The notes under the pieces are model-generated. The model ran no database searches. It saw only the letters and a list, made by a program, of their open reading frames with translations, and was not told where the DNA came from. The position numbers and the translations under genes are program-made. From a virus (Duplodnaviria > Caudoviricetes), in IMG/VR virus record IMGVR_UViG_3300043756_000044, positions 1 through 29,458 of that record: DNA of 29,458 nt; one strand, written 5' to 3'. Positions within the stretch are counted from its first letter, which is position 1, and every line of letters starts with the position of its first letter. Below are positions 8,101 to 24,216 of the stretch, one piece after another.

Positions 8101-8333
8101 TTTGTGGTCCCCCTTGCCGGTAGAATGCGGTGCGTCGGGACGTTGGGACCGCCGTATAACTGCCTTACAAACGCGTCCGCAGTCGACGCCTGTAGCGGCA
8201 TCGCGGAGCGCATAAAGGGCGAACGTGCGGGGATATTCTGCATCTCGGGATTGGCCGGTACGGGGGGAGTTTTCGGAGGTACTTGCGACCATCCTGAGAG
8301 GTCCGGCTGACGTAATTGGAAGGTACGCGGCAT
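8097..8333 (-). CDS. Hypothetical Pro-rich protein (78 aa)
   Basis: ATG 8333 overlaps the nozzle stop (TAATG); its stop overlaps the next ATG. Confidence 0.65.
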   Translation of the reverse strand: MPRTFQLRQPDLSGWSQVPPKTPPVPANPEMQNIPARSPFMRSAMPLQASTADAFVRQLYGGPNVPTHRILPARGTTK

Positions 8334-11300
8334 TATTGTTGCGCCCTCATTTCCTGCCACACCTGTCCGAATATGGTGTACGCATAGAGTTCACTTAATT
8401 CATCCTCGGCGGGCCACGATAACCCGAGCATAAGGTGCCGACACCACACCGGATTCTGTCCCGTTAATACAGCATGGCGGTTGGCAATAATGGTTTCGCT
8501 CGGGGGGAGATTCGGGGGGTCTTGTCGGGTACGCGGAAACGTCTCATACGTCCCCGATAACTCCCCGAATAATGCACTCAATTCCGGCGCGGAACCGGCT
8601 GCGGAACTCTCCACTGTGAACCACGCAACCCCGGCTAATTGTCCCGGTACGGCGAGGTTAATATTGCCGAAAAATACCGTCATCTGGTACGGGGTTCCGG
8701 TATCGGTTCGGGTATTCAAATCGCGAATTCTTATCGCTCCCCCGCTGCTCGCCGGTCCCACTAATAACATGCGAACGCCGGGGGTTATTTCTACCGATTG
8801 CACCGCACTGATTCCCCCATTAATGTACGCGGGAGGGTTCCAATGCTGTCCCGTATCGGGTGCAGTTACGGAGGAGAATCGAATCCATTTCTGGTTGTAA
8901 TCGGATACGTATAATGCTGCCTCCGCATTGACCCCTGTGTGGTACGAAAGCTGGCTGGAATCGGGTGGGAATTGATTGGCAATAATGTCCGCAATGGGGA
9001 ATGAAACCTCAAGAATTCCGCCACCGGGATCAAGCGCCATAATCTGTCGTTGTCCGGTTAATAAATACGCCGTTGTGAGGTTCACGGTGAACGCGTCATA
9101 GTTCAATAACGGCATGTTTTCAATCCAGCGGCTGATGAAAAATGGCTGGTCCGCGCCGTTGCCCTGAATGACGTAAACATCCCTCACGGTGAACACGCAC
9201 ATGCCGAGCGAATTCGCCCACAAACGGGTAATGGATGACTGCACGGTGAAGCTGATATTGAACCCTGTATTACCGTTCGAACCGGAGAGCGATGCGTCGG
9301 GACCGGAGCTAATCCACACCACGTTCCCCACCCCGGCGAATATCCTGCCCACGTGATATTCAAGGCAGGTTGCCCCCTGCGGCAGCGGTGTATTGACGCC
9401 CGTATTCGGGGCTTGCTGCGTGATGTCGAGAGCGCTGTCGGGCTTGTTGTCGACGTAGGTCCATGTCTGTCCCGCGCCGGGGTTCGGAACCGAGCCGAGA
9501 TAGAGGAACGTGGACCCGTTCTGCAGCGTTCGCCATAGCTTGATTGTGTCCACTCCCGGCTGTCCTGTTCCCTCCCCCTGAATGATTAGCTGGTTGCCTG
9601 CGGTGACGGTGATCTCGGGTGCCTGCGGGGACATGTTGCTCTGATCGATGTTCACGGAATTGAAGAAGGTATAGCCGTACAGAACCGGCCCCGCTCCCTG
9701 CGGAGCAAAGGCACCGGCGTTCTGCCAGAGCACGCTGTTATCGGTGGTAATCGCGCCTGAATCAATCGCCCAATCCGGGGTATTGGTGCCGCTCACCCCG
9801 GCGCTGAATATGTTCTGCAGGTAGCCGTTGGAATCGACGATGGTGGACGCTGCGGAGAGTTCCGTATTCGCTCCGATATCGTTCCAACTGAGAGCGCGTC
9901 CCAAGCATTGCCATACCACGCCACCATCCGATATCTGCGTATTCACCCCGCCGCGCCAGTGCGGTTCTGTGCCTCCGCTGTTCCCCGGCTGAATGGAAAC
10001 ATAAAGCTGGTTCGGCGTGCCGGAAACGGCAGTCACAACCCCTATGACTACCGCCCCGGTTGCGTAGGAATGATTCGCCTGCCAGCGCGAAGAACCGAGA
10101 TTGGTCCACGTCACCGAGCCGTCAGAAGTGGTTTGTCCCACGTTCTGATTCCATGCTGGCTCACCGCCGCCGGTTGTGCCGGTCCCGTTGGCAAACTGCA
10201 CATTGCCACCCACTGCGTTGAAGACTGAACCCACCGCGAAGACGTTGGCGGTCGCGTTCCAGCGGTTGCCGCTCCCGTCCTGTACGTATGCCTGCAGCGT
10301 CTGCCCCTGCATCCTGCACGTCCACCCGTGACCGCGATTGCCGGGGGCTGCAGCGTGACCGCTCATCGCGCACGTTTCGACGAATTGCGAGCCGGTATAT
10401 CCGGGCGGCAATCCATGCACATCGCCGTTGTTGAGTCCGGCGAAGATCATCGCAACGTTGTTGGCTCCGCTGGTGGGAATGATGACAGCCGTACCATTCG
10501 CCACTGACGTTGTGTAGGTGTTCTGGCCTCCAGTCCAATACACGCTGAACACTGCAGCGTTGCCATGCCACGAATTGCCGCTCCCGTCATCGTAGAGAGT
10601 CTGAATGGTCGACCCGCTCAGTTTGCAGTAGTACACGCCCTGCATCGCGTGATCGACGTTATCTGACGACACCATGCCTATCTGGTGCATGGAATTTCCC
10701 CACGAAACTCCTCCCGGCTGGAACACCTGAGAGCCATCGCCACCGACCCCAACTTGCAGCCAGATTTGATCTCCTAGCTGTGTGTGGAAGGTGATGCCGT
10801 GATAGCCGCCGTTGTAGTACTCCGAAACACCCCCGCCCGTGTCCCATGCAATCGCAATCCAGTTGGTCGATGCTGCGATTCCTGCCCCGCCTGAGCGGTT
10901 CTGAAAGTTCGATTGCACTACTCCACCCGTGCCGAGCGATTGAAAGACGCCTGCCACGGTGTTCGCTTGGTCCAGTCCAACACCTGCAGTCGTCCACACG
11001 ATGAGCCGTGAGGCGTCGAAGCCAGAGGGTAGGGAAATGCTTGCACCGCTCGAAAAATCCTGTCCGCAGATGATGGCAACCTGTCCGCCGCCCTGCGTCG
11101 GAATCACGTTGAAGTTCGATGGAATGTTGTTGAGATCATCCAGAATAACGATGCCGCTGAGAGCGCTGGAATGGACCTGATACGCCGTACCCGGTTGCCA
11201 CTGCGGATAGTTATTCGGTCGCGATTGCTGGATCACGCTTGGTGCGGAGGTCGGTGCATCCAGTCCCCACCGTCCGATGAAATCGGAGGTATGGTCCCAC

Positions 11301-11758
11301 TGCATATTGTCGACACCGTTGGAAAAATAAAGGTTGTTGCCGACCGATTGAAAGTAGGTTGAACCCGCGCCCGCGCTCTTCTGAAACATCATGCGCGTGC
11401 TTCCCGGCGTTACGTCCCACACCTGTTGCGGCGTATCGGCGAGCACATGAATCGCCTCGCTATTCATGGTGAAGGTATTGAACGAATAGAACCGCCGCAC
11501 CGGGGGAAAGGGACCATCGTTGTAGACGCTCAGACCGGCGCGGCGACGCAGCGTTTGTTTCGGCGTGATCTCGCAATTGATGCCTGCGGTGATGGCATCC
11601 TGCATCCCGCCGTAGAACTTTTCCACCATCGCGCTTGAGCCTGCATCGCGCAGGGGATTGGTATTCGTCCACATGCCCGTGAGCATCCGGTTCACATGGA
11701 GCGGAGCAAAGGCGCTTGACTCAAGCTGCGCACCCGATACTTGGAGAGCGCTGCTCAT
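8333..11758 (-). CDS. Tail nozzle / tail tubular protein B-like protein with inserted carbohydrate-binding-like repeats (1141 aa)
   Basis: N-terminal INCEI...LRRRAG and beta-propeller-like segments (NLYFSNG, GRIFAG...VWIS). Internal WQANHSY/DGSVTWT-type repeats. Lies after the adaptor genes. Confidence 0.7.
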   Translation of the reverse strand: MSSALQVSGAQLESSAFAPLHVNRMLTGMWTNTNPLRDAGSSAMVEKFYGGMQDAITAGINCEITPKQTLRRRAGLSVYNDGPFPPVRRFYSFNTFTMNSEAIHVLADTPQQVWDVTPGSTRMMFQKSAGAGSTYFQSVGNNLYFSNGVDNMQWDHTSDFIGRWGLDAPTSAPSVIQQSRPNNYPQWQPGTAYQVHSSALSGIVILDDLNNIPSNFNVIPTQGGGQVAIICGQDFSSGASISLPSGFDASRLIVWTTAGVGLDQANTVAGVFQSLGTGGVVQSNFQNRSGGAGIAASTNWIAIAWDTGGGVSEYYNGGYHGITFHTQLGDQIWLQVGVGGDGSQVFQPGGVSWGNSMHQIGMVSSDNVDHAMQGVYYCKLSGSTIQTLYDDGSGNSWHGNAAVFSVYWTGGQNTYTTSVANGTAVIIPTSGANNVAMIFAGLNNGDVHGLPPGYTGSQFVETCAMSGHAAAPGNRGHGWTCRMQGQTLQAYVQDGSGNRWNATANVFAVGSVFNAVGGNVQFANGTGTTGGGEPAWNQNVGQTTSDGSVTWTNLGSSRWQANHSYATGAVVIGVVTAVSGTPNQLYVSIQPGNSGGTEPHWRGGVNTQISDGGVVWQCLGRALSWNDIGANTELSAASTIVDSNGYLQNIFSAGVSGTNTPDWAIDSGAITTDNSVLWQNAGAFAPQGAGPVLYGYTFFNSVNIDQSNMSPQAPEITVTAGNQLIIQGEGTGQPGVDTIKLWRTLQNGSTFLYLGSVPNPGAGQTWTYVDNKPDSALDITQQAPNTGVNTPLPQGATCLEYHVGRIFAGVGNVVWISSGPDASLSGSNGNTGFNISFTVQSSITRLWANSLGMCVFTVRDVYVIQGNGADQPFFISRWIENMPLLNYDAFTVNLTTAYLLTGQRQIMALDPGGGILEVSFPIADIIANQFPPDSSQLSYHTGVNAEAALYVSDYNQKWIRFSSVTAPDTGQHWNPPAYINGGISAVQSVEITPGVRMLLVGPASSGGAIRIRDLNTRTDTGTPYQMTVFFGNINLAVPGQLAGVAWFTVESSAAGSAPELSALFGELSGTYETFPRTRQDPPNLPPSETIIANRHAVLTGQNPVWCRHLMLGLSWPAEDELSELYAYTIFGQVWQEMRAQQ

Positions 11759-12033
11759 GCCGCCCCCATGTAGACTGAAAGAGCCTTCTTTCGGGGCGGA
11801 CTGCTCACATGGGCAGAATTGGGAACCGGCTTCCTAGAGCCGGTTCCTGATTCCACTGAAAGGAGGTGATTATCTGTGTACTTGGAAGTAAGGATTAGGA
11901 TTTCAGACAAGCTCATCACGCTTGTTCTGAAAACGTTCATCACAGTTGCCGCGATTATGCGACTCCTGTAATCAACCACCCTCGTCAGTGTCCGCTGGCG
12001 GGGGTGCTTTTTAATTGTAGCAAACCCCCTCAT
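11755..12033 (-). CDS. Possible 92-aa bridge ORF antisense to peptide cassette 1
   Basis: ATGA overlap with the upstream stop (12030-12033) and with the downstream start (11755-11758). The protein has no recognisable features. Confidence 0.3.
   Translation of the reverse strand: MRGFATIKKHPRQRTLTRVVDYRSRIIAATVMNVFRTSVMSLSEILILTSKYTDNHLLSVESGTGSRKPVPNSAHVSSPPRKKALSVYMGAA
11771..11866 (+). promoter_or_regulatory. Putative -10 (TAGACT) and SD-sequestering 5' leader of peptide 1
   Basis: TAGACT 11771-11776. Anti-SD CCTTCTTTCGG 11784-11794 can pair with CTGAAAGGAGG 11856-11866, enclosing hairpin 11821-11848. No good -35 seen. Confidence 0.6.
11815..12007 (-). ncRNA. Putative cis-antisense (antitoxin-like) RNA 1; ends approximate
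   Basis: Would start below the extended -10 TGCTACAAT (12014-12022, minus), cover the peptide 1 ORF and SD, and reach the hairpin at 11821-11848. Confidence 0.45.
11876..11971 (+). CDS. 31-aa hydrophobic peptide, type I toxin-like (not in ORF track)
   Basis: SD AAAGGAGGTGA at 11859-11869 and GTG start: MYLEVRIRISDKLITLVLKTFITVAAIMRLL. A terminator follows. Confidence 0.75.
   Translation: MYLEVRIRISDKLITLVLKTFITVAAIMRLL
11977..12012 (+). terminator. Intrinsic terminator after peptide 1
   Basis: CACCCTCGTCAG-TGTCCG-CTGGCGGGGGTG, a 12-bp stem fully paired only on the plus strand (G-U pairs), followed by CTTTTT. Confidence 0.7.
12011..12024 (-). promoter_or_regulatory. Extended -10 promoter (TTTGCTACAATTAA), convergent on peptide 1
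   Basis: TG-n-TACAAT. The identical 14-mer recurs at 13174-13187 in the same position relative to peptide 2. Confidence 0.65.
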
Positions 12034-12752
12034 TGCTGCCTCGCCATGATGCCCTGTTGCGTGCTCTGCTGTGTGCGCTGCGGTTCGGCGATGACATCAA
12101 GCCAGTTGCCGAGAAAGATGTTGCGCTGCATCGCGCTCAATCCATCCTGAGCGCCGAGCAGATGACCGATGAACTTGGCAGAGAAGACAGGGAATCGCGC
12201 ATCCTTGGTGAGCATCGCGACGTAGGAGAGAAATCCCCAATCGTAGATGTAGGAAAGATGGTCGGGGATCGGCGTCCACGAAGACGCGAGCGATGACATC
12301 CAGTATGGCGCTTTCTGAAACACGCCGTTCAGCACGTAGGCATCATCGGGAATCGCGTTCAGGCGGAAGACAACGTAATCATCATCGCCGATGCTCTGCG
12401 TTGATATGCTCTGCGGTCGCTGAATGCTGGACTCTTCGGCAAGCACGTTCTGGACTTTGATCTCTTTCGTTTGCCCCTTGCTGTTAATGAGCCAAGCTTT
12501 CTCAAGGAATCCGAACTGCGTTAGCTGCAGCGAGTAATCCTGCAACGGGCGGATGGGATTGCCGTATTCGTCTTCGTTGGGAATCTGAATGGTGAACGTT
12601 CCACGATTCCAAGGCCATGCGAACGGAGCGCCGAGCATGGTTTGCTTGGTCATGTTCGCGGCAGTGAGCGCGGGTTCGCCATTCGACACGTTCACCGGCT
12701 GGTAGCCAAGGAAGGGAAGCGAATAGAGTGCGCTGGACATCACGTTTCTCAT
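12030..12752 (-). CDS. Head-tail adaptor / tail tubular protein A-like, paralog 2 (240 aa)
   Basis: EPALTAANMTKQTMLGAPFAWPWNR, QDY...GFLEKAW and PIPDHL motifs align by eye with 13711-14730. Lies upstream of the nozzle. Confidence 0.65.
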   Translation of the reverse strand: MRNVMSSALYSLPFLGYQPVNVSNGEPALTAANMTKQTMLGAPFAWPWNRGTFTIQIPNEDEYGNPIRPLQDYSLQLTQFGFLEKAWLINSKGQTKEIKVQNVLAEESSIQRPQSISTQSIGDDDYVVFRLNAIPDDAYVLNGVFQKAPYWMSSLASSWTPIPDHLSYIYDWGFLSYVAMLTKDARFPVFSAKFIGHLLGAQDGLSAMQRNIFLGNWLDVIAEPQRTQQSTQQGIMARQQ

Positions 12753-13240
12753 TCCTTTTCCCTCGCTTCTTCACACGCCCGCGCTGCCGCATGGATCGTG
12801 TCTTCGTTGACGTTCCCGGTTTCGATGACCACGATGCACACCAATGGCGCGGTTCGCTGGAACTGCGGCGAGCCGATGCGCACGCGCTGGTGGCATCCTG
12901 TGAGGAAGCAGGCTGTTAGACTGAGGATGGCTCCTTTCCAAGTGCGCCATCGGTTAAAAGGTCGTACCGGCCTTGTAACCGTAGAGGCGGTCATCAAGGC
13001 CGGTTCGAGGAAAGGAGATTGCGATGTGAGAGGTAAAGCTTTTCTATGCTTGCCTTGGCTGCATGTACGCGTCGTCATTGACTGGCGATTCGTACTGGCA
13101 GTTACAACACTTGCAAAAGTCCTGCTGCGGTAGGACTTCACTTCATCCGGGGGAACGCAACCCTCGGATGAACTTAATTGTAGCAAAGGCGCTATTCCGC
13201 TCTGCATACGCGCACCCCGTCCTCTGCATCGCTGGATCAT
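12749..13240 (-). CDS. Bridge ORF / small lipoprotein; start uncertain (13240 or 12994)
   Basis: Open from 3 nt after the upstream stop to an ATGA overlap with the adaptor. From Met 12994 it reads MTASTVTRPVRPFNRWRTWKGAILSLTACFLTG-C, resembling a lipoprotein signal. Confidence 0.4.
   Translation of the reverse strand: MIQRCRGRGARMQSGIAPLLQLSSSEGCVPPDEVKSYRSRTFASVVTASTNRQSMTTRTCSQGKHRKALPLTSQSPFLEPALMTASTVTRPVRPFNRWRTWKGAILSLTACFLTGCHQRVRIGSPQFQRTAPLVCIVVIETGNVNEDTIHAAARACEEAREKE
12914..13017 (+). promoter_or_regulatory. Putative extended -10 (TGtTAGACT) and SD-sequestering leader of peptide 2
   Basis: TAGACT 12917-12922. Anti-SD CTCCTTTCC 12931-12939 is the exact complement of GGAAAGGAG 13009-13017, enclosing hairpin 12966-13004. 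Confidence 0.65.
12955..13170 (-). ncRNA. Putative cis-antisense (antitoxin-like) RNA 2; ends approximate
   Basis: Lies downstream of TGCTACAAT (13177-13185, minus), covers peptide 2 and its SD, and would end after hairpin 12966-13004 plus CTTTT. Confidence 0.45.
13026..13133 (+). CDS. 35-aa hydrophobic/basic peptide, type I toxin-like
   Basis: SD AAAGGAG and GTG start: MRGKAFLCLPWLHVRVVIDWRFVLAVTTLAKVLLR. Same cassette layout as peptide 1. Confidence 0.7.
   Translation: MRGKAFLCLPWLHVRVVIDWRFVLAVTTLAKVLLR
13142..13179 (+). terminator. Terminator-like hairpin after peptide 2
   Basis: TTCATCCGGGGG-AACGCAA-CCCTCGGATGAA, a 12-bp stem (one G-U on the plus strand) with a weak U tract (CTTAATT). 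Confidence 0.5.
13174..13187 (-). promoter_or_regulatory. Extended -10 promoter (TTTGCTACAATTAA), convergent on peptide 2
   Basis: Exact copy of 12011-12024. Confidence 0.65.
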
Positions 13241-13243
13241 GGT

Positions 13244-13711
13244 TTACTTCTTTCGATCTCGCCCGCCCTGTTGTCCCGCGAACTGCTGGAACTTGATTTC
13301 TCCACCGGATGCCTCGCCAGCAATCACGCTGACATCGCATGTGGCAGTGATGGTTTTCTTGCCTTCCCCGAGATCGGCGTCAGCGGTTGCCTGAAACTGG
13401 ACAGGTCCAATCGGGCCTACGGAATGAATATTGGCGATTAACGGGTTGCCGGAAGCCACTTCAATCGTTGCGATATCTTCATCGCTGGACGCCCACTCGG
13501 TAGGACCATCTACCTTCGCGGGATTGCCTGCCTTGTCAACCCACTCGATAGACAGCGTTGCGTACTGCCCGGACTGCATTGTGTTGGACATGTGCTCTCC
13601 TTTGAAAACGTATTGACCTAACGTGAAGGTGAAGATTGCCCGATACGGTGTCACGTAGGGAACGCCGTGCTGGATGATGAGGGGGGTTGCAAAACTCACT
13701 TCTAGCTTCAT
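13244..13711 (-). CDS. Ig-like domain virion protein (155 aa from 13711, or 115 aa from 13591)
   Basis: DKAGNP...EWASSDEDIATI...ATADAD resembles Big_2-like folds. TGATG-coupled start at 13711 and AAAGGAG-preceded ATG at 13591. Confidence 0.65.
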   Translation of the reverse strand: MKLEVSFATPLIIQHGVPYVTPYRAIFTFTLGQYVFKGEHMSNTMQSGQYATLSIEWVDKAGNPAKVDGPTEWASSDEDIATIEVASGNPLIANIHSVGPIGPVQFQATADADLGEGKKTITATCDVSVIAGEASGGEIKFQQFAGQQGGRDRKK

Positions 13712-14730
13712 CAGCTTCCTCCCCACTGTCGCCAATATGGATTGCCGGGGCCGGGGTCCGTGTAGTACTCGGGTTGCAGCATTCCACGGTCGGGGAAGAA
13801 TCCGCGCCCTTCGTCTTCGCGGTCCCCCTGTTGCATGAGGTTTTTGATCGACGCAAGCCACTCCTGTTTCATCGGCGCGTACCGCGCTCTGACAAGGGGA
13901 ACGGCACTGTAGCGGTGAGCGAACGCGATGAAGCCATCGCGGAAGGATTTCGCGTTGTCCTCGGGAACAGGATCGATAGTGTCCTGCAGGCTGGTATAAA
14001 CGGGGGCCGTCTTCTGGTAGAAGATGCGGATGAGCCATGTTGCCCCGGCAGAATCGGGCGGCGGCGGGAACATGCGAATGCCATCAGCGAACGGATCGGC
14101 AACCGTCCATTCGCACGTTCCATCGACGATGACCTGTCCAACCGGCCAATCAGGGGGCTTTTTCGGTCCAACCCACGAAGGGGCAACGGGCGGCTCTGAG
14201 CCGGTCACACCCCACTTGGTCAGCACCAGAATGTTTCCTTGGCTGTCAAGAATGTTGGTTGGCGGATTATCCGGCGTTACCGGAACGCCGTAGGGATTGA
14301 CGTAGGTTTTGTAAGGTCCGGGCCAATAGCCTTGTTCCAGTTGATTGTTGGGGAGGGTGCATACACGTGTCGGCCAACCTGCCATGACGCGAGAGATATT
14401 CAAATCGCGTACGCATTCAATCGGCCATGCCGGGGGAGGGACAATCGTTGTGTTGAGTTGAATGCGGTAGGCGTTTTCGAGCCAACCCACATTGTTAATG
14501 TTGAGACTCGCGTAATCCTGTTGTCGCGAGACAAGGAAGAAGGGTGGATATTTTGCGCGGTTCCACTTCCACGGGAACCGCATCGATAGCATGTCCTGAA
14601 TCACATCGTTGGCAATGGTGAGCGCGGGTTCGGCTGCAAACCCACCCGTGCTCACCAATACAGGATTCAGATCGCCAATCGTGCTTACCGAATCGATTAA
14701 ATCCTGTATACGCGTAACTGCGTTTCCCAT
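13711..14730 (-). CDS. Head-tail adaptor-like protein, paralog 1, with inserted repeat module (339 aa)
   Basis: EPALTIANDVIQDMLSMRFPWKWNR, IRMFPPP and PVPED motifs. GAGG RBS; lies after the capsid cluster. Confidence 0.65.
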   Translation of the reverse strand: MGNAVTRIQDLIDSVSTIGDLNPVLVSTGGFAAEPALTIANDVIQDMLSMRFPWKWNRAKYPPFFLVSRQQDYASLNINNVGWLENAYRIQLNTTIVPPPAWPIECVRDLNISRVMAGWPTRVCTLPNNQLEQGYWPGPYKTYVNPYGVPVTPDNPPTNILDSQGNILVLTKWGVTGSEPPVAPSWVGPKKPPDWPVGQVIVDGTCEWTVADPFADGIRMFPPPPDSAGATWLIRIFYQKTAPVYTSLQDTIDPVPEDNAKSFRDGFIAFAHRYSAVPLVRARYAPMKQEWLASIKNLMQQGDREDEGRGFFPDRGMLQPEYYTDPGPGNPYWRQWGGS

Positions 14731-18405: not shown

Positions 18406-18573
18406 TTAGTAGCCTCGCCCGCCTTTGTCTTTTTCTCCGGGCTTTTGCTCTCCGGGCTTATGCTCTTCGGGCTTATGCTCTTCGGGCTTATGCTCTTCAC
18501 CTTGCTTTTTAGCGGGGTCTTGCTTTGGGTCATGCGGTTGCTGTTGGCCTGTTTTCTCTTGTTCGGCATTCAT
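18406..18573 (-). CDS. 55-aa low-complexity peptide with (E/G)E(H/Q)KP repeats (not in ORF track)
   Basis: GAGG RBS. MNAEQEKTGQQQPHDPKQDPAKKQGEEHKPEEHKPEEHKPGEQKPGEKDKGGRGY. Fills the gap exactly. Confidence 0.65.
   Translation of the reverse strand: MNAEQEKTGQQQPHDPKQDPAKKQGEEHKPEEHKPEEHKPGEQKPGEKDKGGRGY
18435..18498. repeat. 15-bp tandem repeat, about 4.3 copies
   Basis: ctccgggcttttgct, ctccgggcttatgct, cttcgggcttatgct, cttcgggcttatgct, cttc. Confidence 0.9.
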
Positions 18574-19696: not shown

Positions 19697-21817
19697 CTAG
19701 GTTCCTCCAAAGAACTGACTTTGCTGCATAGTTTGGGTATCGGACATACGCTGCGCAATAGCGGCAGCGCGATTCAGCGGAGATTCGACTAGGTGTCCAC
19801 CCTGTTGCTTCAATGCCTGTGTTGCTATCCTTCCTTCGATCTTCTGGTTCTCAAGGCGCATCTGGTCCTGCACCTTTTGCTCCTGCATCTGCTGTTCCTG
19901 TTGCATCTGCATTTGCGCGGCTTGATTCATCTGCTGTTTCTCCTCATCGGTCATCGGCACGATGAGGTCGCGCTTATTCTGCCACCCACTAACATCCATT
20001 AGCATACTACACACTTCTAACACATTAACCTTCCATCCTGTCTGACTCAGTTGCTGCACCAGCGCCTGATTGCCGAATATTTCGAGCAGGAAGGGAAGCG
20101 ATTGCGCCATGCGAGCGCGGGCGGCGAGCCGCGTACCGGCAAGCGTGTCGAATTCCAGCTTGGCATTCAGGAAACTATAGAAATCCACCAGAATTGGTTC
20201 TGCCAGTTGCGCGAGCAGCGCCCGAATCTCGGCAACCGTCATGGATTGCGGCACGATATCCCATAGGAAGTCGAGGAAGGGAAGCAGAACACCGTCGATA
20301 AGGCGCTCTATAGGCGCTTGGAGGCGTCCCTGCGCTCCAGCCTGTATCATGCCCGCCCCGGTCCCCGAACGCCCTATAGACGATCCTCGCGGCGGCAATG
20401 CCCCTTGTATGGAAGCCATGTCCGCGCCCACCGTCGCGTCAGCGGTCATATTCGACACCTGCAGCACCCGCCACGCGTCAGCGGGAACCACCGGCTGCGG
20501 TACAAGCGAGATGGCGCGGGTGGCATCGTTGCCGTCCACCAGACGGATTCCGCCGAGCCTGCGGCGTTGCTCCTGTGTCGGCACGTTCGCTCCCCGCGCT
20601 ATGGCGTACTCGGGCTGGACGGCGAATGCGATAAGGTCAAGGGCCGCGTTCGTGATCCCCTGATCGATTCGTTGGTCGCTTCCGGCGACCCTTCCGCAGC
20701 CTAGTCCTATGGGGCTGTTCTCTATGTTCCAGAAATTCGCGCTGAGGAAGGGAATGCGACCAAGATTGTGCCGTCCGTTGCGAATCACAACCTTTTGCTG
20801 CAGGACGGCGCGAACATGACCCTCCGACCACCATTCCAGAATCTGCATCGGCTGTTCTAGCGGGTCGATGGTCCATTCCGTGTCGGGTCGCTCGGCATGA
20901 AATACCTGCGGGTTGGCTTGCATTGTAGCCGCCACCATGTTCGTACCTTCAGTCTGTTCTGTTTCAGACATGAAGATGAATCGCAAAGTTTCATCGTCAG
21001 GAATGTCATAATCTGGATTTTGTCGGAGTTTTTTGAGGTCATCGTAGTTGACATAGAACTCCTGTACTACCCAACCCGCCTTGTGCATCTGGTTCGGCGC
21101 GTTCCATTTTGGATTCCAGAAAACGGTCCCTAATTCGCACTTCTCAAAGATCGGTTTCTTCTTTACAACCTCGCGTTCGATGCGCTCAAACTCATCGCTT
21201 TCCTTGGTGAACACCAGCACCGGGGGACCACCAAGCGGGAGATCGATGCGCTGTGGAGCGGCTTTTCGTTCGTAGCGCACTTCCTTTTCGGTGTACTCCT
21301 CCCACCCGATTTTGAAGATCACGGTCCCCTGATTCACCATGCCTTCAATGCCGTAAGAGAACTCCTGTTTGAAATCGCAGAGGTCGAGCATGATTCCGAG
21401 CAGCGCCTTCCACGCCCGCGCTGCATCGCTGTGCGTGCGCGGTCGCGGGTTCACTTCAAACGGAATCGGCTCAGAAAAAATCGCGCTTGCTAGGGCAGGC
21501 GCGATGGAATTTACTTGCTTGGCGAGATTAAACCTTGAAACGTTCGATCTCGTTATGTTCGATCCTTCGAACACCGATTGTGTTCGCGGCGATTGGTAGA
21601 GCGTATCGGATTCGCGCCAGTGCAGAACCCATAAACGATCACTCAACCACGCGGCGGAACGCTGGTAATCGCGGATGACAATCGACAACACAGACTCATC
21701 CGTGTACTTGGGGTCGGGTACAGGGGTAGCGGGAGTCGATACGTCCTCGGGGTATACAGGACGGCTCCACGCTCCACCCGTAGTCACGAGAGGCGAGACT
21801 GAGGATGGCGCTGCCAT
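19697..21817 (-). CDS. Portal protein (706 aa)
   Basis: Size and position after the terminase. GTVIFKIGW, IPF...PIGLG, D.TVGA...QG and RSGTGA motifs and a Gln-rich C-terminal tail, as in podoviral portals. Confidence 0.88.
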   Translation of the reverse strand: MAAPSSVSPLVTTGGAWSRPVYPEDVSTPATPVPDPKYTDESVLSIVIRDYQRSAAWLSDRLWVLHWRESDTLYQSPRTQSVFEGSNITRSNVSRFNLAKQVNSIAPALASAIFSEPIPFEVNPRPRTHSDAARAWKALLGIMLDLCDFKQEFSYGIEGMVNQGTVIFKIGWEEYTEKEVRYERKAAPQRIDLPLGGPPVLVFTKESDEFERIEREVVKKKPIFEKCELGTVFWNPKWNAPNQMHKAGWVVQEFYVNYDDLKKLRQNPDYDIPDDETLRFIFMSETEQTEGTNMVAATMQANPQVFHAERPDTEWTIDPLEQPMQILEWWSEGHVRAVLQQKVVIRNGRHNLGRIPFLSANFWNIENSPIGLGCGRVAGSDQRIDQGITNAALDLIAFAVQPEYAIARGANVPTQEQRRRLGGIRLVDGNDATRAISLVPQPVVPADAWRVLQVSNMTADATVGADMASIQGALPPRGSSIGRSGTGAGMIQAGAQGRLQAPIERLIDGVLLPFLDFLWDIVPQSMTVAEIRALLAQLAEPILVDFYSFLNAKLEFDTLAGTRLAARARMAQSLPFLLEIFGNQALVQQLSQTGWKVNVLEVCSMLMDVSGWQNKRDLIVPMTDEEKQQMNQAAQMQMQQEQQMQEQKVQDQMRLENQKIEGRIATQALKQQGGHLVESPLNRAAAIAQRMSDTQTMQQSQFFGGT

Positions 21818-21891
21818 ATGGGGAGATGTATGGCGGGTTTAGGCCGCGCAAAACGTGAGAGATACCCCGAACCCGTATCCCTGTTGATGCG

Positions 21892-21920
21892 TTGAACTTT
21901 ACGCCCGTTTCTTTTAGCCT
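21892..21920 (+). promoter_or_regulatory. Sigma70-type promoter for a leaderless antisense gene
   Basis: TTGAAC-N17-TAGCCT, with GTG start 6 nt after the -10. Confidence 0.6.
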
Positions 21921-21926
21921 GCAAGC

Positions 21927-22268
21927 GTGAAAGAAGAAATAATTGATCGCATAGAACGGATGGCCGCACTGGTCGAAGAAGAACAGGGCAGGCCGGTTCG
22001 CTGGTGGTATCTCAGTTTTGCCACCGAAGAAAGCGCTAAAGCTGTCATGGTGAAAGCGTGTGGATTCGCTACCGCCTACATGACCTGCAATTTTTTGGGA
22101 ATCAATCCGGGCGGGCAAGTGATGGGGTTGGAGATTCCCGATGAGATGGCACCGTCCGCGAAGTACATCTACCGCGTGCTCACCAAACAAGAGGTCGAGG
22201 AATGCTGGAATGAGCCGGTCATATCGCTCAGGGAGTTGCGGAAGATGACAGAGAGCGAGCCGAATTGA
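21927..22268 (+). CDS. Hypothetical moron-like protein (113 aa), opposite strand between terL and portal
   Basis: Occupies a gap free of minus-strand genes and has its own promoter. WWYLSFA...LGINPGGQV motif. Confidence 0.75.
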   Translation: MKEEIIDRIERMAALVEEEQGRPVRWWYLSFATEESAKAVMVKACGFATAYMTCNFLGINPGGQVMGLEIPDEMAPSAKYIYRVLTKQEVEECWNEPVISLRELRKMTESEPN

Positions 22269-22296
22269 ACTTTTCAAAAAATCTTGAAAATCAAAC

Positions 22297-22326
22297 AAAA
22301 AAAAGACCCCACTGCCCTGAGGTCTT
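22297..22326 (-). terminator. Intrinsic terminator after terL
   Basis: Minus strand AAGACCTCA-GGGCAG-TGGGGTCTT followed by a T run. Confidence 0.75.
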
Positions 22327-22377
22327 GAGAAAGCAAGCAAAGATCGATTCAGTTTAGTCCACGGGTAAATTCCAGTG

Positions 22378-24216
22378 TCAGTATTCCAGTCCGGGTATCT
22401 GAATTTCAAGTCCGTTTGAACCTACCTTCAAATCTTCGATCTCCGGTTCCGGCTCTTCCTCCGGTTCCGGCTCTGGTGGAGCGTAGGGCGGGCGGTTGTA
22501 AACCAGATTGTAGTGATCCCGCTCGCGCATCATCTGCCACGCCAGTTCGTCAGCACGATCATGCGTGTGGTGACTCGCAGGCAGCGAATCGGCAATGTAG
22601 CTGATCACTTCCGGCAGTCCGGTTTCATCGATCATGCCGTACTCCATGAACCCCGTGATGAGCGGCTTGGTTTTCACCCCAGTGGAAAACAAGAGCCGCC
22701 CCGAAGCTATAGCCGCTTCCACGCTGCGAATGTGCGTGTCACGGAGTCCCGCGTCTTCCTCAAAGGGAATCCACGTAATGTTTATTTCCCATCCCGAATT
22801 GAGCGCATAATCCCTGATTGCCGGATCGAAGCTGATGGCCCCCGGCGATTCGATGATAGATACGCTGTGCGTTCCATACTTCCGCGCCAGATCATGTACC
22901 ACGCGAGCGATACCGGACGGCTTATGATGACCCTGAAGTACGTCCACGATAAAAACACGATCTCGGTGCAGTAAACCCACCGCACCAGATGTCTTTTGCC
23001 ATTTAAGCGACCTGCAGGGAAGTCGAAACACCAGCTTTGGAGTACCTTCCAAGGGTACTTTCGTCTCATCCACCATCGCGCCAATGATCTCCCCTTCGTC
23101 GAAGACAATTTCTTCGGCTCCGTAGGTGTCCAGCATGTATTGCGACATGAAACTTTGATAGTCAGCTTCATACTCTTCCCTCAGAAAGTCGTAATTGAGA
23201 ATGCTCGGGAACAGTAGCTCAATCTCTTCCTCTGCAGGGAATCCGTTGGCGTCGAGGCGCATTCCACTGAGCAGGCGCATCGCCGGTTTGTATACGCGGT
23301 CGTAGCTGCCGGGGCGGGCCGTCAGCGTCTCATCGTTGAAGATGTCATGGACGCCATATGGCGTTCCAATCTTCAGTTCGATGCCCGTAGGCTTGAGAAT
23401 TTTGCGCACCAGCTTGTATGCCTTGGTGATGCGCTCGCGGGCTTGGTAGGTGTTGCTGTTGCGATTGGTGTGGATGTCATCGATGATGAGGATGTCCGGG
23501 TGCCATCCGGTCGTTGCGGATTCGACCGAATTGCCCCATATCAGCGGTTCGATGATCTCCGGTTCTACCTGCCGGATGGCTGCGGTGAACTGCCCGCTGC
23601 TGGTACGGGAAGCCGTCACACACAGTTCAGGAAAGAGCGCCTGAAACAGAGTAGGACCGCGTTGCGTGAGCCGCTGTGTGAAGAAGCTAGCCACCTCATC
23701 CACGAACGCAAACGCGAGTTCCTTGGAACCAGACAGAATGAGAATGGCAATGGTTTCGTAGTAGTGCAGGATGAGCATGACGCAGAACGCAAGATCGATG
23801 GTCGTCTTGTAGGTGTTGCGCGGATAAATTAGCGAGCGACGACGCTTCAAACCGATGGCGATTTCTTCGACCATCTTGTTATCGCCGTCGATCTCGGGGA
23901 AGAACGCCAGCGCTTCGCGATGCACATCCTCGGTGATGAGACAGTAGCCGAGCACGTAGCAGAGCGCGAGCAGGTTGGTTTTGCAGACGCGCCTGCCTTC
24001 CTCTTTGAGCCGGTTGTCCACCAGCACCATCGCGGTCAGTTCATCGCGCCATACCTTGTTATCGCAGCGCGGAGCGCCTTCCACGCGCAGCCTGCGCCAA
24101 TCGAAGTGCTGTGTTGAGGGGACCGGCTCTTTTCTTGGGGGGAGACGTTGCAGCGTTGGCTTGCGCGGTTTGCGCGGCGTGCTTGCTTCCATCAAACTGC
24201 CTTCCACGAGGGGCAT
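22378..24216 (-). CDS. terL: Large terminase subunit (ATPase intact, nuclease site degenerate)
   Basis: Walker A-like YPRNTYKTT, Walker B GWHPDILIIDD, coupling motif IGTPY and FMSQYM linker. GGAGG RBS before ATG 24216. Confidence 0.85.
   Translation of the reverse strand: MPLVEGSLMEASTPRKPRKPTLQRLPPRKEPVPSTQHFDWRRLRVEGAPRCDNKVWRDELTAMVLVDNRLKEEGRRVCKTNLLALCYVLGYCLITEDVHREALAFFPEIDGDNKMVEEIAIGLKRRRSLIYPRNTYKTTIDLAFCVMLILHYYETIAILILSGSKELAFAFVDEVASFFTQRLTQRGPTLFQALFPELCVTASRTSSGQFTAAIRQVEPEIIEPLIWGNSVESATTGWHPDILIIDDIHTNRNSNTYQARERITKAYKLVRKILKPTGIELKIGTPYGVHDIFNDETLTARPGSYDRVYKPAMRLLSGMRLDANGFPAEEEIELLFPSILNYDFLREEYEADYQSFMSQYMLDTYGAEEIVFDEGEIIGAMVDETKVPLEGTPKLVFRLPCRSLKWQKTSGAVGLLHRDRVFIVDVLQGHHKPSGIARVVHDLARKYGTHSVSIIESPGAISFDPAIRDYALNSGWEINITWIPFEEDAGLRDTHIRSVEAAIASGRLLFSTGVKTKPLITGFMEYGMIDETGLPEVISYIADSLPASHHTHDRADELAWQMMRERDHYNLVYNRPPYAPPEPEPEEEPEPEIEDLKVGSNGLEIQIPGLEY

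Follow-up and report, generated by a model that had tools for sequence, protein, structure and literature searches.

Two antisense cassettes in a phage tail operon

The late operons of phages can carry morons, as in HK97 gp15 and the P22 sieA region, and the toxin Hok is about 52 amino acids (aa) long. Several described systems resemble the locus reported here. In Ibs/Sib, a cis-antisense RNA overlaps the whole open reading frame (ORF) and ribosome-binding site (RBS) of a short hydrophobic peptide (PMC4147584); IbsC is 19 aa long (PMC8309996). The hokW-sokW pair of prophage Sp5 is a phage-borne toxin-antitoxin (TA) system of type I that affects the phage life cycle (PMC8621323). In Tai/Ati of phi80 and Tha/Ith of S. 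aureus 80alpha, an antisense gene with its own promoter interrupts a phage operon, and transcription of the operon lowers its expression (PMC11364771, PMC11087260, PMC11034616). Here we analyse two cassettes, A and B, that flank a conserved 240-aa gene in the tail operon of the phage contig IMGVR_UViG_3300043756_000044. The window is this whole contig of 29.5 kb (29,458 nucleotides [nt]), which comes from soil and has a GC content of about 55%.

Both cassettes are real accessory modules and lie on the strand opposite the tail operon. We consider it reasonably probable that each joins a silenced membrane-toxin gene to a stop-free bridge that carries ribosomes from one tail gene to the next. On the best reading, the cassettes form a new type I TA-like family with an Ibs/Sib layout, placed in a noncontiguous late operon that a dummy ORF makes non-polar. 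Their features are given below (SD, Shine-Dalgarno sequence).

11755..12033, minus strand: sequence-neutral bridge ORF A of 92 codons, with an ATGA coupling at each end
11771..11776, plus strand: predicted -10 box of peptide mRNA A (TAGACT); T-A-x-A-C-T is invariant in 14 aligned cassettes
11783..11869, plus strand: leader A; the anti-SD (from 11783) pairs with the SD at 11859-11869, with hairpin 11816-11853 inside
11876..11971, plus strand: peptide A, 31 aa, GTG start, cationic and hydrophobic, predicted single helix; candidate toxin
11977..12012, plus strand: predicted terminator of peptide mRNA A, a 13-bp hairpin (11977-12006) with U-tract
12014..12022, minus strand: predicted promoter of antisense RNA A, an extended -10 (TGCTACAAT) located 3' of the start codon of the bridge
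12749..13240, minus strand: bridge ORF B, 163 codons; starts 3 nt past the upstream stop codon and ends ATGA on the 240-aa gene
12917..12922, plus strand: predicted -10 box of peptide mRNA B (TAGACT after TGn)
12931..13017, plus strand: leader B; the anti-SD (12931-12939) pairs with the SD at 13011-13017, with hairpin 12962-13008 inside
13026..13133, plus strand: peptide B, 35 aa, GTG start; candidate toxin
13142..13172, plus strand: predicted terminator of peptide mRNA B, a 12-bp hairpin with weak U-tract
13177..13185, minus strand: extended -10 (TGCTACAAT), predicted antisense-RNA promoter B

As in Ibs/Sib, the predicted cis-antisense RNA would cover the entire ORF and RBS, and the position of its promoter fits. 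The peptides are longer, however (26-36 aa against about 19), the Ibs profiles match none of the 22 peptides searched, and the setting is a phage operon with a bridge ORF. Fst/Ldr offers a similar peptide length and convergent RNAs, but its PxxxG motif is absent here (0/20), and the antisense promoter lies beyond the terminator and reads across the ORF, whereas RNA I and RNA II overlap only at their 3' ends. Compared with hokW-sokW, the cassettes show no Hok match, and no integrase passed the cut-off in five cassette-bearing contigs. Tai/Ati and Tha/Ith share with the cassettes a self-promoted antisense gene (promoters predicted here) between same-strand operon genes. Their counterpart is a conserved protein where the cassettes have a predicted RNA inhibitor, and the overlapping ORF here is sequence-neutral and coupled at both ends; the accessible parts of those papers describe no such bridge. 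Like morons, the cassettes are optional, self-promoted and self-terminated units between conserved virion genes; unlike morons, they are antisense and have an SD lock, a convergent promoter and a frame-preserving bridge. By the sequence tests run, the cassettes are not members of Ibs, Fst/Ldr, Hok or TisB. A literature search, whose coverage left out supplements and most subscription papers, returned no account of sequence-neutral bridging ORFs.

Cassette anatomy and the locked ribosome-binding site

The first-pass annotation of this DNA had described the same ordered elements in both gaps, and we located every one of them. TAGACTGA occurs only at 11771 and 12917, the ACCGGC/GCCGGT stems lie at 11825/11839 in A and 12966/12999 in B, and the 14-mer TTAATTGTAGCAAA stands at 12011 and 13174. 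The 3' hairpin has 13 bp in A and 12 bp in B. The 14-mer by itself is not beyond chance, with 32 repeated 14-mer words in the window; shuffles gave an expectation of 1.95 for TGNTANAAT (2 found) and of 3.25 for TARACTG (3 found). The significance of the motifs rests on their ordered placement and on conservation in relatives rather than on single-motif counts. Both promoter-like boxes hold their position across cassettes. The reverse extended -10 is conserved in 20 of 20, in the forms TGCTACAAT, TGATATAAT, TGATACAAT and TGGTACAAT, a promoter-like pattern of variation; the antisense RNA itself is predicted. The two 3' hairpins top a list of 21 terminator-like sites in 20 kb and fold with z-scores of -5.2 (A) and -6.8 (B).

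In the folds of leaders A and B the 5' anti-SD locks the SD (z of -5.9 and -4.3, reached by 0/200 shuffles), and the probability that the SD is unpaired is at most 0.01. In the alignment of 14 cassettes, from which the structure was derived and which accordingly favours it, two-sided changes are found in 36 of 44 predicted pairs and 90% of the cells are paired, a result that 0/500 shuffles reach; controls in which the structure was slid along gave 41-50%. The anti-SD/SD helix is 95% paired. In these folding models the peptide mRNA has the sequestered RBS of the type I TA class. We also considered whether translation might be turned on by a conserved 5' hairpin that sequesters the anti-SD. This is not supported: such a hairpin appears in the nascent fold of window cassette A, shows no covariation and is 69% paired, with 466 of 500 shuffles equally high.

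All 20 peptides have 26-35 aa, a net positive charge and a maximum Kyte-Doolittle 17-mer of 1.25-2.73, and AlphaFold models peptide A as one helix (pLDDT 81). When 13 cassettes were compared in 12 spanning-tree pairs, with window B and locus L091 left out, differences in the peptide ORF numbered 83/283, 55/283 and 106/282 at codon positions 1, 2 and 3 (p=1e-5). The order, with position 2 below 1 and 1 below 3, is the mark of a peptide frame under protein-level selection, so that a small hydrophobic peptide ORF under selection, another feature of the type I TA class, is present as well.

The peptides had been said to match no known toxin family, and this was borne out by Pfam, NCBIfam and Rfam. 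None of the 22 peptides passed a Pfam or NCBIfam cut-off; the TisB profile gave E=0.3-0.5 for one of the 22, far below cut-off, and Hok/Gef and other type I toxin profiles were likewise unmatched. Rfam gave no match in the window at E<=1, and blastn with cassette A none in phages or plasmids. A peptide profile run against 1.84 billion representatives returned one match (E=2e-4), and the ESM Atlas gave a best score of 0.85 to unnamed clusters, which is a lead only. We also observed that the peptide GTG start overlaps a start-stop pair in another frame (ATG-TGA or TTG-TGA) in the window at 13024-13029 and in L110, L240, L062, L072 and L089; in these six cassettes the overlap may be due to chance.

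Open bridge frames on the operon strand

On the operon strand, the gaps that hold the cassettes have coding capacity of their own: two ORFs, of 92 and 163 codons and both overlooked in the first pass, cross them fully. Such an open bridge frame is found in 20 of 20 cassettes, against 1.51 expected from per-cassette Markov resampling. For a single cassette the chance of an open frame in any frame is 0.03-0.14, and the other two operon-strand frames hold 1-10 stops. The bridge start overlaps the upstream stop at -1 in 17 of 20 and the bridge end reads TGATG or ATGA in 18 of 20, the remaining ends lying within about 11 nt of the flanking genes. Among all inserts at these junctions the frame is open in 33 of 34, which is trivial for the sense genes among them.

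Because the cassettes are related, three further tests of the bridge matter. First, leaving window B aside, 14 cassettes share one register, and in these the spacer from -10 to start takes 7 lengths and that from stop to reverse box 4, all of them multiples of 3; at least nine length changes are involved, for which the probability is (1/3)^9, or about 5e-5. Second, in the peptides of the five cassettes that lie exactly antiparallel to the bridge, CTA/TTA leucines number 0/31, against 31/125 in the others (Fisher p=7e-4), and TCA codons are lacking, against 11 in the others. As judged by codon usage, then, the peptides avoid stop-making codons in the register where avoidance matters. Third, the natural deletion in L116, described below, is in frame. 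Differences in the bridge outside the peptide ORF, by contrast with a coding pattern, are spread evenly over the codon positions (153/573, 153/575 and 155/578, or 0.267, 0.266 and 0.268; p=0.997); for the same pairs, the values of the 240-aa gene are 0.24, 0.15 and 0.45. Since the frame is open yet without codon-position bias, the comparison indicates that it is the openness of the bridge that is selected and not the encoded protein.

A profile built from the bridges retrieved 33 proteins including the window's own, several of them apparently chimeric but in frame; this set is biased to open frames. The 3' part of bridge B (12749-12994, minus strand) resembles, by our own reading, a lipoprotein signal with an LTGC lipobox and has a weak NCBIfam lipoprotein match (E=0.11). 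Its C-terminal 81 aa have no relative as a stand-alone lipoprotein in viral contigs, and the part is possibly the remnant of a captured small gene.

At the 339/240 junction of L065 (2420-3000) there is an antisense gene that we read as AP2-like, and the operon strand there has one early stop, after which 173 codons stay open up to an ATGA on the downstream gene. L136 (5250-5560, plus strand) has a similar 27-aa peptide unit in its terminase-portal gap, upstream of the portal gene and in sense orientation, with an anti-SD and a symmetric terminator hairpin; all three opposite frames of this unit contain stops, and it has no bridge.

Distribution among related phages

Scans with the 240-aa protein yielded 82 distinct loci, from which we scored 142 junctions including the window's two, leaving out seven distant loci (L119-L125) and junctions without a partner gene. 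Of these, 108 are empty, with gaps of -19 to 7 nt, and 34 hold inserts: 20 cassettes like the window's, a deletion derivative in L116 and, by our own reading, genes on the sense strand (methylases and small membrane proteins, for example) together with the one antisense AP2-like gene. A further, truncated cassette is present in L076. On a quick 69-row tree the cassette label changes 13 times, at least 8 of them forced by the starred branches, and by this measure cassettes have been gained and lost repeatedly. Between L088 and L089, whose flanks are 97% identical, the difference is a clean indel of one 261-nt cassette. L116 equals L110 (96% flanks) less 135 nt, which removes the SD and the 5' half of the peptide in frame, an outcome that alone has a one-in-three chance.

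A third kind of junction is occupied in G306, where a B-type cassette with a 36-aa homologue of peptide B separates an endolysin-like gene from a conserved 242-aa gene and is likewise bridged; in G304 the 242-aa homologue is ATGA-coupled directly to its endolysin. Among the loci examined, the B-type profile matches only the G306 cassette. The type I TA reading of the first pass keeps its anatomy, which is upheld in 20 cassettes by covariation, by selection on the peptide frame and by conserved positions, and loses the proposal that A and B are duplicates, as they are different subtypes. Derivation of B from A by duplication is unlikely, B scoring only 37 bits on a model that includes B. Because B's only match is the endolysin-junction cassette of another phage, independent acquisition of A and B appears likelier.

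Our detectors were imperfect: a generic detector failed to recover either window cassette and picked up several ORFs unrelated to them, and the model R1 gave the second subtype only 14-17 bits. The cassette counts are therefore lower bounds. For chromosomal relatives, R1 found none in 151 and 151 genomes from the families of two Acidobacteriota metagenome-assembled genomes (MAGs) or in a further set of two; with only 23 candidates scored per genome in the family searches and no positive control, this does not show absence. A three-part DNA pattern was found among viral contigs only in the contig of L023.

Several variants deserve mention. L039, L053, L070, L073 and L084 make up the second subtype, which is set apart by its antiparallel register, by the greater length of its leader and by a conserved motif like GCGCA-GATTGCGCTYAACGCAATC. 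L091 (1058-1366), P0122 and P0123 contain tandem partial cassettes, with an extra 3' hairpin or segment and the bridge frame kept, which suggests recombination between cassettes. Just upstream of the cassette site at the 240-aa/1141-aa junction, L001, L039, L081 and L088-L091 have a 33-aa hydrophobic sense-strand ORF that has an SD of its own and over which the bridge runs in a different frame; in L088 and L090 this ORF is present and the cassette absent.

Proposed mechanism and its alternatives

If the cassettes work as we propose, by analogy with established type I systems (PMC4147584 and PMC8309996), host RNA polymerase would make two transcripts: a peptide mRNA that is stable and silent and, from the promoter behind the terminator, an antisense RNA of short lifetime, about 190-210 nt long, that covers the peptide ORF and SD. 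The peptide would be silenced twice in this way, by the folded-over SD and by the antisense RNA. In the late phase, operon mRNA would cross the cassette and, as the noncontiguous operons suggest, lower peptide expression by adding antisense and polymerase-collision silencing; the abutting empty sites and the coupling lead us to infer that the flanking genes are co-transcribed across the insert. Ribosomes would re-initiate at the ATGA overlap and keep translation coupled, and the frame is probably kept open so that they can read straight across. We suppose that these ribosomes would mask cassette hairpins, Rho sites or duplexes. The antisense RNA would be untranslated, because its start lies 3' of the bridge start codon, and would be able to terminate. 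The weakest step is the benefit, which is most likely that the host would die if phage DNA were lost or infection stalled before the late phase, which amounts to addiction in a carrier state. Of the possible uses, we prefer addiction, during a carrier or stalled state, to the exclusion or lysis timing suggested in the first pass; lysis timing seems disfavoured, as the late mRNA is antisense to the peptide gene.

A more specific and rather doubtful version is that the cassette is a ribosome-licensed addiction module, in which the dummy ORF makes the antitoxin terminator conditional, late mRNA acts as a second antitoxin, and the host is killed on loss of the phage DNA or on a block that precedes the late phase. 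Translated late-operon RNA would read through, and antitoxin RNA, lacking the bridge start codon, would stop. Conditional termination by bridge translation is put forward as a hypothesis. A scan made without a shuffle control found, in 12 of the 15 cassettes of the same register, an operon-strand hairpin with a U-rich tail at a distance of 45-60 nt beyond the start of the peptide.

A number of results weigh against a silenced toxin gene with a ribosome-carrying bridge. That same scan found nothing in L023, in 5/5 cassettes of the other register or in either window cassette, so masking of an antitoxin terminator is not shown for the window. The cassettes are related (66-82% along the spanning tree), and the 20 of 20 open frames are not independent trials. 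A hydrophobic ORF in the main register would cheaply leave the antisense frame open over its own 90 nt. The spacers of window B (109 and 43) depart from the multiple-of-3 rule with the frame open, and the 5' spacers of the five antiparallel-register cassettes (134, 142, 142, 144 and 145) are not constant modulo 3, again with open frames. A sigma-70 scan found no -35/-10 pair and no -35 boxes at the cassettes, and we found no activating switch in the leader. Integrases were absent above cut-off from five cassette-bearing contigs, and integrase, repressor and partition genes found no match among 111 ORFs of three such contigs, which CheckV rates 42-56% complete.

The peptide might instead be a regulated, non-lethal membrane effector, serving superinfection exclusion or HokW-like help in lysis, with the bridge acting as we propose; we think this unlikely. 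In its favour, no lysogeny module was detected, HokW of prophage Sp5 speeds phage release (PMC8621323), one cassette lies directly upstream of an endolysin-like gene, and the similar L136 peptide stands in sense orientation ahead of the portal gene. However, toxic type I systems have just this layout of an SD lock (12-14 bp here) and an antisense promoter with full overlap (PMC4147584), late transcription opposes the peptide gene and would suit silencing over late expression, and the L116 deletion loses the SD and peptide and keeps both promoters.

Two other alternatives concern the bridge. That it encodes a late-expressed protein antitoxin, as Ith is for Tha or Ati for Tai, has precedent in the protein inhibitors of noncontiguous phage operons (PMC11087260 and PMC11364771), and bridge ORFs are listed by gene callers and align as a family. 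We give this little credence: codon-position bias is missing outside the peptide gene (p=0.997), the bridges occur in two registers and in lengths of 92-163 aa, and the few invariant residues, read from alignments, fall on promoter boxes, SDs and the peptide stop. Least probable, and largely refuted already, is that the open frame is a by-product of composition and the antisense gene. The shared ancestry of the cassettes and the GC content speak for it, as does the window's own 563-nt open frame over an antisense gene between terminase and portal, absent in 25 relatives. The low chance per cassette with 1-10 stops in each of the other two frames, the length changes in multiples of 3, the register-specific codon avoidance and the coupling at both ends are all contrary to it.

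The phage, its host and neighbouring features

The late block of the window lies on the minus strand and runs from terminase, portal and major capsid protein to conserved genes of 339, 240 and 1141 aa. The genes around the cassettes are as follows.

8333..11758, minus strand: virion gene of 1141 aa, putatively nozzle-like from its position downstream of cassette A; its start ATG overlaps the bridge A stop (ATGA)
12030..12752, minus strand: conserved 240-aa virion gene between both cassettes, adaptor-like by position
13244..13711, minus strand: inserted sense-strand gene, upstream partner of bridge B, 155 aa from a TGATG-coupled ATG
13711..14730, minus strand: conserved 339-aa virion gene, 33.5% identical to Tunturi_3 gp12 over 94%

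The 240-aa gene has no PHROG or Pfam match, and "adaptor", the name used in the first pass, is a positional label, as is "nozzle" for the 1141-aa gene. Gap B is edged by the additional inserted gene, which has no family match. The 240-aa and 339-aa genes show a weak N-terminal cross-match (tblastn E of 1e-2 to 1e-5 in relatives) and may be paralogues.

Between terminase and portal (21696-22409, minus strand) the window has a plus-strand gene of 113 aa (21927-22268). The operon strand of this gap carries the 563-nt stop-free frame, with no ATG at the terminase stop, a strong terminator (22326-22303) and a TAAACTG box (22356-22350); the frame is not common to the 25 relatives, none of whose terminase-portal gaps (0/25) is crossed by a single open frame, the longer ones holding several genes. 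Elsewhere, an intergenic gap at 18453-18496 contains a 14-mer three times at 15-nt spacing.

The 339-aa gene has a sole cultured match among 50,697 phage records, Tunturiibacter phage Tunturi_3, which also has the lowest terminase E-value among the best 15 of 327 rows. Tunturi_3 is a podovirus of Acidobacteriota (PMC11924767). A contig that covers 11592-14200 without differences may represent the sample from which the window came. Of three genome-contig matches, two belong to Acidobacteriota MAGs and one to a Saccharibacteria bin, and these may be binned phage contigs; the profile of the 240-aa gene found nothing in genome contigs. From these matches we infer with moderate confidence that the host belongs to the Acidobacteriota, and the cassette-bearing phages are probably Acidobacteriota podoviruses.

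Implications

With the cassettes, phages that probably infect Acidobacteriota gain a type I TA-like family for which no profile exists; according to a 2025 abstract (PMC12390103), type I systems had until then been found only in Proteobacteria, Firmicutes and Tenericutes. In-frame indels, codon avoidance, flat divergence and the allele series provide natural evidence for an ORF that is kept open without encoding anything particular. For annotation, the consequence is that gene callers enter the dummy ORF as a "hypothetical protein" and pass over the real peptide. How operons absorb antisense cargo without polarity is illuminated by matched alleles with the cassette absent, present or deleted, and this natural series makes the mechanism directly testable. 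If the ribosome-licensed module were true, apparently non-integrating Acidobacteriota podoviruses would carry a dead-man's switch, and sequence-neutral bridges would be a general, unrecognised route by which phages tolerate antisense cargo in coupled operons.

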